A DNA stretch of 9,403 nucleotides from a virus. Its lineage: Duplodnaviria; Heunggongvirae; Uroviricota; Caudoviricetes. Below the pieces are notes generated by a model, which saw only the letters and a program-made list of their open reading frames with translations, ran no database searches and was not told where the DNA came from. Positions 2,982 through 9,403 of this stretch are shown here, piece by piece. Numbering within the stretch: position 1 is the first letter of the stretch; each line of letters begins with the position of its first letter. Both the position numbers and the translations under genes were made by a program. The DNA lies in IMG/VR virus record IMGVR_UViG_2531839146_000012. One strand, given 5' to 3'.

Positions 2982-3006
2982 ACCAATACTATAATTAAAT
3001 AATATA

Positions 3007-3022
3007 AATAATATTCTTTATA
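3007..3022. repeat. Exact 16-bp direct repeat AATAATATTCTTTATA, left copy; right copy at 3184-3199
   Basis: Identical 16-mers at 3007-3022 and 3184-3199 bracket the 22-bp tandem array and its AT-rich flank; both continue with similar (C)TATAT sequence. Confidence 0.55.
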
Positions 3023-3027
3023 CTATA

Positions 3028-3135
3028 TAGCTCACTGTGAACTAGGGGGGGTAGTTCACTATGAGCTAGGGGGTAGGTCATAGTGAGCTAGGGGGTAGGT
3101 CATAGTGAGCTAGGGGGTAGGTCACTGTGAACTAC
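3028..3135. repeat. Five tandem 22-bp repeats (unit about TAGGTCATAGTGAGCTAGGGGG), each with a palindromic TCAC-N-GTGA core
   Basis: Units start near 3028, 3050, 3074, 3096 and 3118 with 22-bp period; the first unit is in inverted orientation (AGCTCACTGTGAACTAG). Followed by an AT-rich stretch with (TA)6 at about 3203-3214. Confidence 0.65.
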
Positions 3136-3324
3136 AATAAGACTATTAATAAAACTATATTAGATTATTAATTAGATCATAATAATAATATTCTTTATAT
3201 CTATATATATATATGATCTTTTGCCTTCCGGCGTTAGCTTCACTCTCTGGCAAGCAGCCTTACTCCGCTACCTTTCGGGCTTCGTGGCTGGCCCGTTCCG
3301 CTCACACCGAAAGCAAAGCGTTAC

Positions 3325-3366
3325 TTTCTTCGTGTAACTATCGTGGCGGTAACGCCCACGAAGAAA
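3325..3366 (+). other. Stable hairpin with GNRA-type tetraloop (GGCG-GTAA-CGCC) nested in a 9-bp outer stem
   Basis: TTTCTTCGTG (3325-3334) pairs with CACGAAGAAA (3357-3366); inner GGCGGTAACGCC at 3345-3356. Sits in a locally GC-richer segment (about 3216-3420). Confidence 0.35.
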
Positions 3367-3600
3367 TACTATTGCGCTGTGCGCAGTAAGAGTAATCACC
3401 TAACCAATCATACTGATTGCTTATGTGTTAACTCTCTCTACTCTTAATTACCCTCCTACATATAATAACTCTGTTATTCTCTGTAGTTGTGTAATTACTC
3501 GAAGAGAGAGCGGCTAAAGCTCAATTACACTCTGCTTTCCTCGTGTAATTTCACTAAGCCTCAATACAATTCCACTTCCTACTTCTGTAGTCGTGTAATT
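3330..3600 (-). repeat. Inverted copies of the ATTACAC motif (CGTGTAAT) plus a 20-bp direct repeat CT(C/T)CTGTAGT(T/C)GTGTAATT
   Basis: GTGTAAT at 3489-3495, 3543-3549 and 3593-3599; GTGTAAC variant at 3333-3339; one direct ATTACAC at 3524-3530. The 20-mers at 3479-3498 and 3582-3600 are near-identical. Confidence 0.5.
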
Positions 3601-3640
3601 GTTTTCGGTGGAAAAGCCAGAGGCGACACCGAAAGAGAAT

Positions 3641-3710
3641 TCTGATCTTATTAATCTTATCTATCTTAGTTAATCTTCTTACTTATCTTACTTTATCTAC
3701 TTTATTATTA
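3641..3710. repeat. Pyrimidine-rich cluster of TTATCT / ATCTT motifs (AGATAA on the minus strand)
   Basis: TTATCT at 3657-3662, 3683-3688 and 3693-3698, plus several ATCT variants. Confidence 0.4.
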
Positions 3711-4220: not shown

Positions 4221-4249
4221 TTGACAAATGTTTCTTTATATGTAATAAT
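4221..4249 (+). promoter_or_regulatory. Putative sigma70 promoter of the early operon
   Basis: -35 TTGACA (4221-4226), 17-bp spacer, extended -10 TGtAATAAT (4241-4249). It lies about 110 nt upstream of the first gene. Confidence 0.5.
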
Positions 4250-4359
4250 AGGTATTAGAGGGACAGAAAAACATTCTTCTCTAAATAATCAAAATCAATG
4301 CACTTTGAAGCCGTCAGGCTTGCAAGGTGTTTTTCTTTTAACTGAATAAGGAGTTTTTT

Positions 4360-4548
4360 ATGAAATGGTTTACCCCGGAGCACGTCATCTCGGCATTTAA
4401 AAAAGGTGAGCTTACACGCCATCAAGTAGTAATGAATCGTAATATGGCAAGGAGTCGAGGTTATCCAGAGCGAGCAGCTTGCTTCAATGAAGCACTCAAG
4501 ATTATTGATGAATTAAGAAAAAATGAAAAAGAATCTGAAACAGAGTAA
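4360..4548 (+). CDS. Small hypothetical protein (62 aa), first gene of the early operon
   Basis: AAGGAG RBS at 4348-4353, 6-nt spacer, ATG 4360. No family recognised. Confidence 0.6.
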   Translation: MKWFTPEHVISAFKKGELTRHQVVMNRNMARSRGYPERAACFNEALKIIDELRKNEKESETE

Positions 4549-4567: not shown

Positions 4568-4735
4568 ATGAGCGAAACCAAGAAACCAATTCCGCGCACT
4601 TACCTACACGTTGACCCTGAAATCTTCAAGGTTTTATTTGCTGAAGCCAAGAAAAGGCAAATTATGGTCAGTGATTTGATGTTAGAAATCATTACTGAAG
4701 CAGCAGAGAACATCAAACAAAAAAAGGGTAAGTGA
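4568..4735 (+). CDS. Ribbon-helix-helix (CopG/Arc/MetJ-like) DNA-binding protein, 55 aa; below the ORF-track cutoff
   Basis: AAGGAG at 4555-4560, ATG 4568, stop TGA 4733-4735. Translation MSETKKPIPRTYLHVDPEIFKVLFAEAKKRQIMVSDLMLEIITEAAENIKQKKGK fits a beta-strand / helix / helix layout typical of RHH proteins. Confidence 0.55.
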   Translation: MSETKKPIPRTYLHVDPEIFKVLFAEAKKRQIMVSDLMLEIITEAAENIKQKKGK

Positions 4736-4786: not shown

Positions 4787-5479
4787 ATGATTAATCAACT
4801 AACTTTTACAAAACACTATGACACGTTTGATAATGTATCAAAGATTTATTCTGATAAATTCCCTCAAGGAAAAGATTTAGATCTATTACATATTGTGCTT
4901 TATTTTCGATTCCTTAGTTATCAGGAAAACAACCTTAATTGTTATGAAAGTCACGAAACATTAGCTAAGATTTTTAAGTCTTCAGCGTCAACAATTAAAC
5001 GTAAGATAAACGATCTTAAAGAGATGGGATTATTAGAAACATCCCCACATCCTGATCCGTATATTTCATCTTTGATTTACAATGCTCTCCCTCTCACAGA
5101 TGCACATATTACTCCCCCAGGAGAATCATCACTCTCTGATCTTTCTGAGGCAGAAGAAGCACAGGAACAACCTAAAGGCCATAAACAGCCTTCTTTTGAT
5201 GTTCTTGATGATGATTGGGATGCGCCTTTACCGTGGGAGACGGAAGAAACACCTGTTTCATCAAGTGAAAAGGTAGCTAATGATAATGAGGAGGATGTGT
5301 TAGAGAATTTTGCCTCTCTTATCATCCGGGAGAAACACAGAAGAACAGGAGGATCATCATTTATAGACTTTGCAAATTCACTGGCTTATAGACACGGGCT
5401 AAAACGACCAAATGGTATTGAGGCATATTTTGCTAAGAAACATCCCAAAGTATATGAAGACTTTGATATTCCATTTTAA
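4787..5479 (+). CDS. Winged-HTH protein (HTH_36 / replisome-organizer-like N-domain), acidic linker, C-terminus ending EDFDIPF
   Basis: AAGGAG at 4774-4779, ATG 4787. The N-terminal ...CYESHETLAKIFKSSASTIKRKINDLKEMGLLE matches the usual winged-HTH pattern of phage/plasmid replication organizers. An acidic low-complexity linker (DDDWDAPLPWETEE...) follows; the last residues are YEDFDIPF, stop 5477-5479. Confidence 0.8.
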   Translation: MINQLTFTKHYDTFDNVSKIYSDKFPQGKDLDLLHIVLYFRFLSYQENNLNCYESHETLAKIFKSSASTIKRKINDLKEMGLLETSPHPDPYISSLIYNALPLTDAHITPPGESSLSDLSEAEEAQEQPKGHKQPSFDVLDDDWDAPLPWETEETPVSSSEKVANDNEEDVLENFASLIIREKHRRTGGSSFIDFANSLAYRHGLKRPNGIEAYFAKKHPKVYEDFDIPF

Positions 5480-5490
5480 TAAGGAGGGTT

Positions 5491-5769
5491 ATGATTCAAT
5501 ATTTAGTAAAAAATCAAGTAGACAGAATTCAGTGTAATGACACAGGAAAACGCATCTATGAAACACTTGCTTACCTCTATAAAGGAAAGCCAACACCGCT
5601 AAAATATAGCGATGTGTTACATCGAGCAGGGTGCTCTGAAGATGGTTTAAAATTCTGGCTGAAACAGCTATCAAATTTCGGTGTTATTGAGATTAAAGAA
5701 TTATCTTTCTCTACATTCAATCTCAAAAGACTAAATAGAGAAATAGACTTCATCTATTCCACTCTCTAA
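5491..5769 (+). CDS. Small hypothetical protein (92 aa), possible winged-HTH
   Basis: AAGGAGGG RBS at 5481-5488, ATG 5491; tightly packed after the previous gene. Confidence 0.7.
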   Translation: MIQYLVKNQVDRIQCNDTGKRIYETLAYLYKGKPTPLKYSDVLHRAGCSEDGLKFWLKQLSNFGVIEIKELSFSTFNLKRLNREIDFIYSTL

Positions 5770-7584: not shown

Positions 7585-8613
7585 ATGATTCTAGGTAATG
7601 ATTACGTTGATTTAGCTCCTCTGTTCTCTGCGCATAGCACTAGAAATTATCTGCTTTCTACTCTTGATTTTACGGATTCTGTAGGGGTTACATCTCATAA
7701 AGTGGCTGTTAGCCAACTGGTGGAAACTAACGAATCTCTGTTCAACAAAGAAACCTCTCGTTTCTCTTCTGAACATAACGTGACTAAGCGTGAACAAGGT
7801 AAAGAATATCTGATTGAAATCCCGTACTTTTTAAGGGAAGACCTGATCAAACCGCAGGACGTGCAAGGCAAACGTAAACCTGGCACTGATTTTCAGGAAA
7901 CACTCACTGATATTTATGCTGACTATGTTGCTAAACACAATGTTGCATTCCAGCGTACAAAAGAGAGCGTGTTGGCGGCTTCTTTGTTCTCTGGCAAAAC
8001 TTACACGCCTAAAACTGATGATGTTCTTATCGAATGGGGCAAGCTGTTTAACGTATCAGCTATGAAAGCCACTGTGAACGCTTCCAGCACTGACACCACG
8101 AAGATTTTTAAAGAATTTGATCAGATTGCTACTGACATTATCGAGAAAGCACAAAGCCAGGCGGCTGCTGTAGAGCGTATTGTTGTTTTCTGTAAGCCGG
8201 AAGCCTTCTCTGCAATTCGATTCTCTGCTGGTATGGCAAACGCATTCCAGTATGTAAGCCCACTGGAAGAGGGGAACGTTGTGTATCAGCGTCGTGACCT
8301 GCTGCCAGGGGTGACAGCGTTCACTATTCCAGGAACTAACATTGATGTTATTAAACTGGTAGATCCGCTACACCTGGCACATATGACCGCAGACGCTGTA
8401 GCGATTCCGAAGTTTGCTAAAGGCTCTAACGTATATCAGAACATCTACGGGGCTGCTTCCAGCACTTTTGAACTGATTAATGCCGATCCTACTGAGGTCT
8501 ATAGCTACAGCTATGAATCTTCTCGTGGTGATGCTGTGAACGTTGTTACAGAGAATAGCCAGATGGTTGTTAACCACGGTGTAGGCTTCTCCGTTCAAAT
8601 CACTGTTAAATAA
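7585..8613 (+). CDS. Putative phage major capsid protein, T7 gp10-like (342 aa)
   Basis: AAAAGGA RBS, ATG 7585. By eye, the segment AVERIVVFCKPEAFSAIRFSAGMANAFQYVSPLEEGNV aligns with T7 gp10 ...ADRVFYCDPDSYSAILAALMPNAANYAALIDPEKGSI (shared R, C-x-P, SAI, M-x-NA-x-x-Y, P-x-E-x-G) at a similar position in a protein of near-identical length (342 vs 345 aa; T7 sequence from memory). Followed by a strong terminator. Confidence 0.6.
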   Translation: MILGNDYVDLAPLFSAHSTRNYLLSTLDFTDSVGVTSHKVAVSQLVETNESLFNKETSRFSSEHNVTKREQGKEYLIEIPYFLREDLIKPQDVQGKRKPGTDFQETLTDIYADYVAKHNVAFQRTKESVLAASLFSGKTYTPKTDDVLIEWGKLFNVSAMKATVNASSTDTTKIFKEFDQIATDIIEKAQSQAAAVERIVVFCKPEAFSAIRFSAGMANAFQYVSPLEEGNVVYQRRDLLPGVTAFTIPGTNIDVIKLVDPLHLAHMTADAVAIPKFAKGSNVYQNIYGAASSTFELINADPTEVYSYSYESSRGDAVNVVTENSQMVVNHGVGFSVQITVK

Positions 8614-8630
8614 TATTTAACGTGTAATAG

Positions 8631-8664
8631 AGGCGTGGCGTGTATTCACGCTTCGCCTTTTTTT
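8631..8664 (+). terminator. Rho-independent terminator after the capsid-like gene
   Basis: AGGCG-TG-GCGTG / loop TATT / CACGC-TT-CGCCT, followed by a 7-T run (8658-8664). Confidence 0.7.
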
Positions 8665-8698
8665 ATTTATTTTTTAAATTTTGAGAGGTGATTAAAAT

Positions 8699-8902
8699 AT
8701 GGAAGTGATTCTGAAATCAAAAAATGGTGTACACGTACATTTAGATGCTAATGATTCTAGAGGATTGTTAAATCTGAAATATCTATGTTCTCTCCTAGAT
8801 GTTCCATATGAAGGAGTAAAAGCCCGTATGTTCAGACTAAACGAGAGTATTGATCAAGCTCTACACCATTTCTTAAGCAAAGAAGGTGATAAAAATGATT
8901 AA
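8699..8902 (+). CDS. Small hypothetical protein (67 aa)
   Basis: AGAGG RBS, ATG 8699, stop 8900-8902. Confidence 0.5.
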   Translation: MEVILKSKNGVHVHLDANDSRGLLNLKYLCSLLDVPYEGVKARMFRLNESIDQALHHFLSKEGDKND

Positions 8903-8916
8903 TAAGGGGATTTTAA

Positions 8917-9183
8917 ATGTTAGAAATTAACACTTCTAAAATTAAGAACACAGTTACATTTAGTGTAGATAAAGACAGCTTGAAAAAAGCGAAAGACTCT
9001 ATTACAGGCTTAAAGGAATTCGCAGAAAACATCAAGCCAGCTAAATTAAGGTTTGATAATGTCACTAAAGGCTATAAGAAAGCACAAAGTGAAGTAGATA
9101 AGATTACTAAAAAGCAAGCCCAGGCTGATAAAGCTAATGCTAAAGCACAATTAGCCGCTCAACGTGTAGTTGCAAGAGGGTAA
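8917..9183 (+). pseudogene. Lys/Ala/Gln-rich (coiled-coil-like) protein gene truncated by the IS1 insertion
   Basis: AAGGGGA RBS, ATG 8917. The frame runs into the IS1 terminal inverted repeat starting at 9179, and the stop TAA (9181-9183) is supplied by the IS1 end GGTAATGAC. Translation ends ...AQLAAQRVVARG. Confidence 0.5.
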
Positions 9184-9403
9184 TGACTCCAACTTATTGA
9201 TAGTGTTTTATGTTCAGATAATGCCCGATGACTTTGTCATGCAGCTCCACCGATTTTGAGAACGACAGCGACTTCCGTCCCAGCCGTGCCAGGTGCTGCC
9301 TCAGATTCAGGTTATGCCGCTCAATTCGCTGCGTATATCGCTTGCTGATTACGTGCAGCTTTCCCTTCAGGCGGGATTCATACAGCGGCCAGCCATCCGT
9401 CAT
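9179..9403 (-). mobile_element. IS1 right end (partial; continues beyond the window)
   Basis: 9179 onward reads GGTAATGACTCCAACTTATTGATAGTGTTTTATGTTCAG..., the reverse complement of the canonical IS1 right terminus including the GGTAATGACTCCAACTTATTGAT inverted repeat. Confidence 0.9.
9194..9403 (-). CDS. insB: IS1 transposase InsB, C-terminal fragment
   Basis: Track [72 protein letters not shown] is the recognisable C-terminus of IS1 InsB; stop at 9196-9194. Confidence 0.9.

Follow-up and report, generated by a model that had tools for sequence, protein, structure and literature searches.

The window analyzed here, a 9,403-nucleotide (nt) stretch of the Escherichia coli MS 85-1 chromosome recorded in IMG/VR as IMGVR_UViG_2531839146_000012, contains on its plus strand (4787 to 5479) a gene for a 230-amino-acid winged-helix protein with the terminus EDFDIPF. 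This terminus is the focus of our analysis, as it closely resembles the C-terminal tip of SSB, the bacterial protein that binds single-stranded DNA. In databases, the product, WP_000609979.1, is entered as "hypothetical protein" or "transcriptional regulator." Its open reading frame (ORF) is intact, with an ATG start 7 nt downstream of an AAGGAG Shine-Dalgarno sequence and a C terminus, ...HPKVYEDFDIPF, that is followed by a TAA stop.

Domain architecture and the C-terminal tip

The N-terminal domain, residues 1 to 112 (4787 to 5122, plus strand), is of the allele that we call W and ends in ALPLTDAHxxPP, a motif that is invariant in the family and closes this domain. AlphaFold2 (AF2), run with 16 homologs, models residues 10 to 110 as a winged helix at a predicted local distance difference test score (pLDDT) above 90, bearing out the N-terminal winged helix-turn-helix of the initial annotation. 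The modeled fold resembles the winged helix of the DnaD N-terminal domain and of RepA_N. Profile searches gave matches, at E values of 2e-9 to 3e-4, to PHROG families whose annotation is replication-initiation, O-like, or DnaD-like. The match to Pfam HTH_36 (PF13730) fell short, at 24.2 bits under a gathering cutoff of 25, while a second allele, K, reaches 25.2. We treat the HTH_36 and DnaD likeness as fold-level resemblance only. A PDB sequence search with the window protein returned only generic helix-turn-helix matches of the MarR/ArsR type, and NCBIfam and PADLOC searches gave nothing specific. No SSB or oligonucleotide/oligosaccharide-binding (OB) fold domain was matched in Pfam, PHROG, or NCBIfam, and the AF2 model is likewise without an OB fold.

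The winged helix is followed by a disordered acidic linker, residues 113 to 166 (5123 to 5284, plus strand; pLDDT below 50; isoelectric point [pI] 4.05), in which 16 Asp or Glu stand against 3 Lys or Arg, and then by a small basic domain of four helices, residues 167 to 219 (5285 to 5443, plus strand; pI 9.3), delimited by the AF2 model and by composition. In the AF2 model the disorder covers residues 115 to 165, and the confident helical part extends from residue 167 to 227. Structure comparison found no confident or informative relative of the small domain. The long acidic linker described in the initial annotation is therefore present, but it is the folded basic domain, and not the linker, that bears the tip EDFDIPF (residues 224 to 230; 5456 to 5476, plus strand). 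Within the linker lies a short conserved motif, FDVLDDDWDAPLPW (residues 137 to 150; 5195 to 5236, plus strand), which in relatives reads PD[LF]DD[IL]PFx[WC]DAPxY; its first half there is an internal copy resembling the SSB tip, and a WDAPxY element follows. Read from its N terminus, the 230-residue protein combines an initiator-type winged helix, a linker that is both acidic and disordered, a small helical domain of basic charge, and a tip identical to those of real SSBs.

The SSB C-terminal tip is the hub by which more than a dozen genome-maintenance proteins locate single-stranded DNA. In the SSB C-terminal-tail (SSB-Ct) pocket, the terminal Phe enters a hydrophobic pocket, a conserved Arg receives its carboxylate, and the acidic residues are held by a basic rim, contacts that have been described for DnaG, chi, PriA, ExoI, and RecO (PMC5872125). 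PriA and PriC reach SSB-coated DNA through contact with the SSB-Ct (PMC9917605). Translated from its gene, E. coli K-12 SSB ends in ...PPMDFDDDIPF. As the initial annotation had noticed, the window protein ends in a look-alike of this tail: it shares the last four residues with SSB, and taking two Asp out of the E. coli SSB tail gives the tail found in the window.

Conservation of the tip was followed through the family, with 41 proteins found at an E value of 0.001 or less in a search of 1.84 billion representative proteins and 24 nonredundant tails compared, from proteins with identity to the window protein down to 23%. Phe is the last residue in all 24, as it is in all intact E. coli alleles, with Pro at position -1 in 20 of 24 and Ile or Leu at -2 in 21; Asp and Glu prevail at -3 to -6, and an aromatic residue stands 4 to 5 residues before the end. 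Full-length relatives end in DDFEIPF, DDFDIPF, EEFELPF, EFDPIPF, FFDPIPF, EFEDLPF, YDSIPF, SAVPF, and similar sequences. The same type of tail is found on further members in Enterobacter, Serratia, Buttiauxella, and Citrobacter genomes; the genome scan for such members was built on a 6-sequence alignment. The initial annotation had staked its idea on homologs keeping an acidic Pro-Phe end, and they do. Among 188 unrelated ORFs of at least 150 codons from the same loci, 6 end in F, 1 in PF, and none in acidic-x-[ILVP]PF, so the pattern of the family is more than chance. One locus, L013, is labeled as a Bacillota metagenome-assembled genome; because the end residues of its gene are the same as those at E. 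coli locus L012, we take the label as a probable binning error.

The tip persists where the rest of the C-terminal half does not. Across 120 close homologs the last six residues differ only by I versus L, and the domain preceding them is the most variable part of the protein. E. coli C-terminal halves come in three kinds, C1 (...VYEDFDIPF), C2 (...STIYDSLPF), and C3 (...ETEEDDFDIPF), all with an acidic-[IL]PF ending, and P0131, P0151, and L011 combine an unrelated divergent C-terminal domain with a retained tip. This retention, in relatives and through swaps of the domain, argues that the tail is under selection. It also bears on the idea that the acidic tip acts within the molecule, folding onto the basic C-terminal domain or the winged helix and gating DNA binding, as acidic tails do in SSB, T7 gp2.5, and T4 gp32. 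The basic domain adjoins both the acidic tip and the acidic linker, and the AF2 helix of residues 220 to 227 is continuous with the C-terminal domain; the last 10 residues have a mean pLDDT of 80, or 69 when the domain is modeled alone. Charge alone, however, would not need an invariant terminal Phe, Pro at -1, and Ile or Leu at -2 across three unrelated C-terminal domains. We consider such gating very unlikely as the explanation of the tip, and it would be compatible with partner recruitment.

To place the tip among other proteins, we scanned viral contigs. In the first scan, which covered 2.9 million contigs, the pattern [DE][DE]F[DE]IPF with TRR directly after it was found in 34 stretches, all of them at true stop codons and none at TGG. 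Twelve belong to the window protein family and about 13 are OB-fold SSBs; 7 of the latter were checked and all 7 match PF00436, two of them ending exactly in EDFDIPF. PF00436 SSBs in viral contigs carry EDFDIPF or DDFDIPF ends, and the window tip is indistinguishable from the tips of real SSBs. The other matches include three superfamily 2 (SF2) helicases, two primase-DnaB_C fusions, and a Gp3-like protein. The second scan, for [DE]3-IPF-TAA, gave at least 120 matches, with at least about 65 non-SSB ORFs among the matches listed. The ten longest non-SSB ORFs among those listed include a T7-gp4-like primase-helicase, a DUF927 protein, an archaeo-eukaryotic primase (AEP), an SF2 helicase, AAA-type ATPases, and three without a Pfam match. 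For ten further ORFs, the PHROG matches were a gp2.5-like SSB, a second SSB family, and for the most part families whose function is not known. The classified matches contained no identified structural or lysis protein, most of the roughly 65 non-SSB ORFs listed in the second scan being left unclassified. That the classified carriers are neither structural nor lysis proteins argues for the EDFDIPF-type peptide as a replisome-context module.

On viral contigs L020, L023, L031, L033, L091, L100, L141, and L145, the proteins with ...DD(F)[DE]IPF ends, the tip of the host SSB type, are SF2 helicases of phages, primase-DnaB_C fusions, the T7-gp4-like primase-helicase, the DUF927 protein, and the AEP. 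This census suggests that the tip is a widely grafted replisome-docking module and that phage helicases and primases have acquired it more commonly than is appreciated.

Two other identities for the peptide have to be weighed against this background, beside one that we dropped, a mimic of the FtsZ C-terminal peptide: the FtsZ motif, DIPAFL, differs in the spacing of Ile and Phe and is not terminal. The tip could instead be a hexapeptide of the QLxLxL class that binds the beta sliding clamp, so that the initiator would recruit the clamp to the origin. Known clamp-binding motifs include QLSLPL of Hda and the C terminus of Pol IV. The hydrophobic residues of DFDIPF fall at i, i+2, and i+4, like those of QLSLPL, a pattern seen in the window tail only. 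Two family members end in QSAVPF and QSTIPF, the internal linker copy, LDDLPF-like, would suit motifs that function internally, and plasmid initiators are known to carry clamp-binding motifs, RK2 TrfA with QLSLF among them (PMC4980987). The tails themselves nonetheless speak for a different ligand: Gln at the first motif position is absent from 22 of 24, the distance from the upstream aromatic residue to [IL]PF varies by 1 to 2 residues, Phe is always the final residue, and the identical heptapeptide terminates genuine OB-fold SSBs, whose tails are defined as SSB-Ct. Clamp binding is in our view quite unlikely.

The other alternative is an ordinary transcription factor, with terminal residues that form a structural cap and a coincidental likeness to SSB. 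Winged helices are generic, the best PDB sequence matches are of the MarR/ArsR type, and the HTH_36 score is below its cutoff. A cap would hardly be retained while the domain it supposedly caps is exchanged, though, and the same heptapeptide otherwise occurs on SSBs and on replication helicases and primases. Of the accounts considered here, this is the one we hold least probable.

Iteron arrays and the candidate origin

If the protein is an initiator, its N-terminal domain should have sites, and the family offers a natural experiment by which to find them. Islands of E. coli carry three unrelated N-domain alleles, W (257 genomes, including that of the window), K (225), and E (173), and these occur in natural chimeras with the C-terminal types: W+C1, W+C2, K+C1, K+C2, K+C3, E+C1, and E+C2. 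N-allele and iteron type were compared across 20 loci. At least 4 B sites (TAGGTCAYWGTGAGCTA-GGGGG in a 22-bp array) are found in 9 of 11 W-type loci, at least 3 A sites (a 23-bp array with core GGAAATGAGTTCC) in all 4 K-type loci, and at least 5 C sites (AACAGAAnnCTGTTA) in 4 of 5 E-type loci. A K-like protein with 67% identity pairs with GGCAATGATTACC instead of the core of array A. Iteron type thus follows the N-domain allele, independently of the C-terminal type. Beyond E. coli, loci L008 to L011, from other genera and with proteins 34 to 44% identical, have 22-bp arrays of their own at the same position.

In the window, array B comprises five 22-bp repeats (3026 to 3135), each consisting of the 17-bp palindrome TAGGTCAYWGTGAGCTA and GGGGG, with the palindromes at 3028 to 3044, 3052 to 3068, 3074 to 3090, 3096 to 3112, and 3118 to 3134. 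A lone sixth site of B type lies at 2810 to 2826. The array is flanked on the left by a tract of 93% AT (2985 to 3025) and on the right by one of 90% AT (3136 to 3212), both candidate DNA-unwinding elements, and lies about 1.7 kb upstream of the gene; a repeat search of the gene itself (4787 to 5479) found none. Palindromes at 22-bp phasing between AT tracts correspond, by analogy, to the anatomy of a lambda-type origin. The initial annotation had instead proposed as sites of the protein the iteron-like ATTACACAGGG, and this we dropped: these repeats are unchanged in islands with three or more different N-domain alleles and so do not track the allele, whereas the B array does. That iteron type co-varies with the N-domain while ATTACACAGGG does not argues that the cognate sites, as predicted, are the five B palindromes at 3026 to 3135.

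Five repeats of the ATTACACAGGG type lie at 2339 to 2779, and with as many as 2 mismatches allowed, the whole window has 12 matches where 1.9 would be expected. Another conserved factor probably has its sites here, such as the small ribbon-helix-helix-like protein, the recombinase, or the integrase.

The part of the origin region that precedes the cognate W array (2810 to 2981) mixes sites of different allele types. The W-type site at 2810 to 2826 is followed by an E-type site, CACAGAATTCTGTTA (about 2831 to 2845), and by the K-type array A at 2883 to 2981, whose 23-bp repeats have the core GGAAATGAGTTCC followed by conserved CACCAATACTATA. In the window, array A would be a noncognate leftover, the trace of a past allele exchange, and this mosaic as a whole looks as if islands carrying different initiator alleles had recombined.

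The operon, its noncoding surroundings, and the host island

The gene is the third of a rightward operon, and the features named in this paragraph up to its second gene all lie on the plus strand. A promoter-like site, TTGACA-17-AATAAT (4221 to 4249), stands ahead of the operon, and a leader hairpin of 13 bp with a U-run follows at 4300 to 4339 (-17.5 kcal/mol; z = -3.05). A hairpin of the same shape, with two compensatory base-pair changes, is found at 9620 to 9656 of locus L005. Placed between promoter and first gene, the leader hairpin looks like a transcription attenuator. The two upstream genes encode proteins of 62 (4360 to 4548) and 55 (4568 to 4735) residues, the latter ribbon-helix-helix-like by eye and without a match in family searches, and their order is syntenic in distant relatives. 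Eleven nt past the stop of the 230-residue gene begins a 92-codon ORF (5491 to 5769) with a faint match to a winged-helix/replication-initiator PHROG (E = 0.09). Most capsid-carrying islands have this ORF, the DNA of which occurs in 421 genomes; in other islands it is truncated or absent.

Upstream of the operon extends a gene-free region of about 2 kb that contains several repeat families and has a counterpart in distant relatives. Between the iterons and the operon promoter it includes a noncoding block of about 430 nt (3200 to 3650) that is conserved in islands whose proteins are only 25 to 44% identical (nhmmer E values of 1e-15 to 1e-36), with homologs at 8812 to 9276 of L005, 8546 to 9086 of L011, 8580 to 9082 of L015, 8721 to 9224 of L010, and 8573 to 9090 of L009. 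The block has invariant hairpin-like islands, TTGCGCTGTGCGC and GAGCGGCTAAAGCTC, and RNAalifold finds 18 pairs with compensatory changes; it has no Rfam match, and Rfam gave nothing credible in the whole window. It could be a structured RNA, or else a signal in single-stranded DNA at which, for example, a primosome assembles or priming takes place. Between it and the promoter, at 3645 to 3708, lie degenerate 9- and 22-nt repeats of the TCTTA type (79% AT) that are kept in all E. coli islands.

These features belong to an island of about 12 kb, the 3-kb module of which is present in 660 of 5,426 complete E. coli genomes (~12%). The island is bounded by direct repeats of 19 to 23 bp (at 22 and 12159 in L051, 234 and 12246 in L050, and 11427 and 24004 in L002), which we take to match the 3' ends of the tRNA genes thrW and glyU. 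An ARAGORN search of the fetched loci yielded no complete tRNA. The ends of the ~12-kb contigs, which revealed these att repeats, are without terminal overlap and gave no sign of a circular form. The island carries either a serine recombinase or other cargo in its place, along with its origin region and the operon, five small unknown proteins, major-capsid-E-like and tape-measure-like proteins, a Dit-like tail protein, and a tyrosine integrase. The structural and integrase genes correspond to 7585 to 9183 of the window and 18593 to 23860 of L002, with a tape-measure-like gene of 609 codons. Portal, terminase, and protease are absent from the island proteins, and a scan of every island protein found no helicase, primase, polymerase, or loader. 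In the window, the cargo position that holds the serine recombinase in other islands is taken by a 183-codon ORF (1015 to 1566) whose product has a hydrophobic N terminus and matches PHROG 2578/14768, of unknown function, at an E value of 1e-17. A related shorter island (L005 to L007) keeps the recombinase, origin, and initiator module and has defense cargo in place of the structural genes.

The island of the window strain measures 16 kb owing to IS100 and IS1 insertions. At 9194 to 9403 and 8917 to 9183, IS1 (with an InsB-like ORF on the minus strand) interrupts the tape-measure-like gene, and in L001 an IS100 closely flanks the window on its left side. With these insertions, this copy of the island is partly decayed. 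A phage or plasmid origin of the 230-residue protein was considered and dropped, as no full-length homolog exists among 50,697 phage or 72,556 plasmid records. By its gene content the island is apparently an undescribed satellite-like element, outside the described families of E. coli satellites.

A setting of this kind invites another account of the tip, as a decoy that competes with SSB for its partners in takeover or anti-defense, or as bait for SSB-tail-binding proteins of a helper phage, carried by a regulator or repressor that senses helper infection. Repressors of phage-inducible chromosomal islands (PICI) are lifted by helper proteins, recombinases included. The tail is identical to SSB tips, the island looks helper dependent, with capsid, tape-measure-like, and Dit-like genes and neither terminase nor portal, and one database name is "transcriptional regulator." The position of the gene is not that of a divergent repressor beside the integrase, however, as it is third in a rightward early operon; its predicted sites are phased multicopy palindromes between AT tracts rather than promoter operators, and its N-domain is initiator-like. 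A pure competitor, moreover, needs no sequence-specific DNA-binding domain that co-varies with iterons. Of the two roles raised in the initial annotation, tethering of host factors to element DNA would fit this anatomy better than pure competition, and we regard a decoy or sensor as unlikely.

A proposed initiation route and its relation to known systems

We give about even credence to the reading that the gene encodes the origin-binding initiator of this ~12-kb tRNA-integrated, satellite-like island, a lambda O-like protein whose SSB-type tip would recruit host SSB partners to the origin. Dimers of the winged helix would bind the five 22-bp palindromes at 3026 to 3135 and help to open the flanking AT tracts. 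The complex would then display ten or so EDFDIPF tips, able to dock into the SSB-Ct pockets of host proteins. Candidate partners are PriA or PriC, leading to DnaB-DnaC loading, as well as the primase DnaG and the clamp-loader subunit chi, so that the tip may play the part that belongs elsewhere to a dedicated loader of the helicase, lambda P for example.

Several observations weigh against this reading. The operon encodes other DNA-binding proteins, the iterons are 1.65 kb from the gene with a conserved noncoding block in between, and DnaA boxes are not enriched, with 3 near-matches against 2.8 expected. At the protein level, what precedes the tip directly is a folded domain and not a long flexible linker, and AF2 draws residues 220 to 227 as a helix continuous with that domain, both of which bear on how accessible the tip is; and the internal DFDDLPF-like copy in the linker of relatives cannot present a free carboxylate. 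Some family tails are only weakly acidic (QSTIPF, QSAVPF, and TIYDSLPF), and all members located so far are from Enterobacterales.

A further-reaching proposal is possible, though we lean against it: that an initiator with host SSB tips assembles the primosome and replisome at a duplex origin by the restart, or SSB-interactome, route (PriA or PriC to DnaB; DnaG; chi), with neither DnaA boxes nor a loader of the element, and more broadly that the tip serves as a portable "replisome plug," added by mobile elements on independent occasions to initiators, SF2 helicases, primase-helicases, and AEPs. That initiators borrow motifs of the host replisome is known already; of an SSB tip on an origin-binding initiator, full-text searches of the literature located no report. 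If the tip acts as we propose, a minimal mobile element would have a new and simple route by which to bring a host helicase-loading or priming pathway to a double-stranded origin, and a DNA-tethered SSB tip would be a natural reagent with which to ask which SSB partners suffice for replication to start. The replication module also matters in practice to E. coli genomics, as the island is undescribed and occurs in ~12% of the complete genomes of the species.

Among described satellites, P4-like elements and PICI are defined by an alpha or Pri-Rep replication protein, and capsid-forming PICI also by portal, protease, small terminase, and adaptors. The window island differs from all three in having no primase/helicase-type replication protein of its own, and from capsid-forming PICI also in having no full head module. 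A typical P4-like element with a TOPRIM/DUF927 gene adjoins it in L001 and provides the contrast. As for initiators with comparable winged helices, the protein has no significant sequence match to the N-terminal domains of DnaD or of pSK41 RepA (RepA_N) and lacks the C-terminal domains of both.

With the bacterial SSB-Ct, the tip shares the extreme C-terminal position, the terminal Phe, Pro at -1, Ile or Leu at -2, the acidic residues, and the upstream aromatic residue, and the whole heptapeptide EDFDIPF is identical in some phage SSBs. The differences from SSB lie mostly in what precedes the tip. The window protein is a predicted double-stranded-DNA-binding winged helix without an OB fold, and its tip, with two fewer Asp than that of E. 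coli SSB, follows a folded domain, whereas the SSB tip follows a long glycine- and proline-rich linker.

Lambda, in which the origin lies inside the O gene and a P-type helicase loader is the partner, offers a parallel in origin design. Common to lambda O and the window protein are an N-terminal specificity, here predicted, for phased palindromic iterons beside an AT-rich tract and a modular build, in which relatives swap the N-terminal half that sets specificity and the C-terminal half that makes interactions. The window protein matches PHROG "O-like" families weakly. In contrast to lambda, the candidate origin of the window is 1.65 kb upstream and not inside the gene, the island has no gene for a P-like loader, and the C-terminal half of the protein is unrelated to that of O and ends in an SSB-type tip.

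RK2 TrfA, with its QLSLF motif, is a precedent for an initiator in which a short linear motif copied from host replisome proteins serves to recruit a host replisome component to the origin (PMC4980987). The TrfA motif is internal and directed to the beta clamp, whereas that of the window protein is terminal and its presumed target is the SSB-Ct pocket. A precedent for the tail itself is found in phage T7, where the tails of the gp4 helicase-primase and of gp2.5 use the same site on the polymerase. There, as in the window protein, a replication protein that is not an SSB shares the acidic, Phe-terminal tail of SSB. A model of gp2.5 with the polymerase was built by aligning the gp2.5 C terminus on the polymerase-bound DTDF peptide, a mimic of the gp4 tail (PDB 6P7E; PMC12339929). 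The T7 tail, ...DTDF, has the phage polymerase as its partner, whereas the window tail is of the host type, ...DIPF, and stands on a predicted origin-binding protein.

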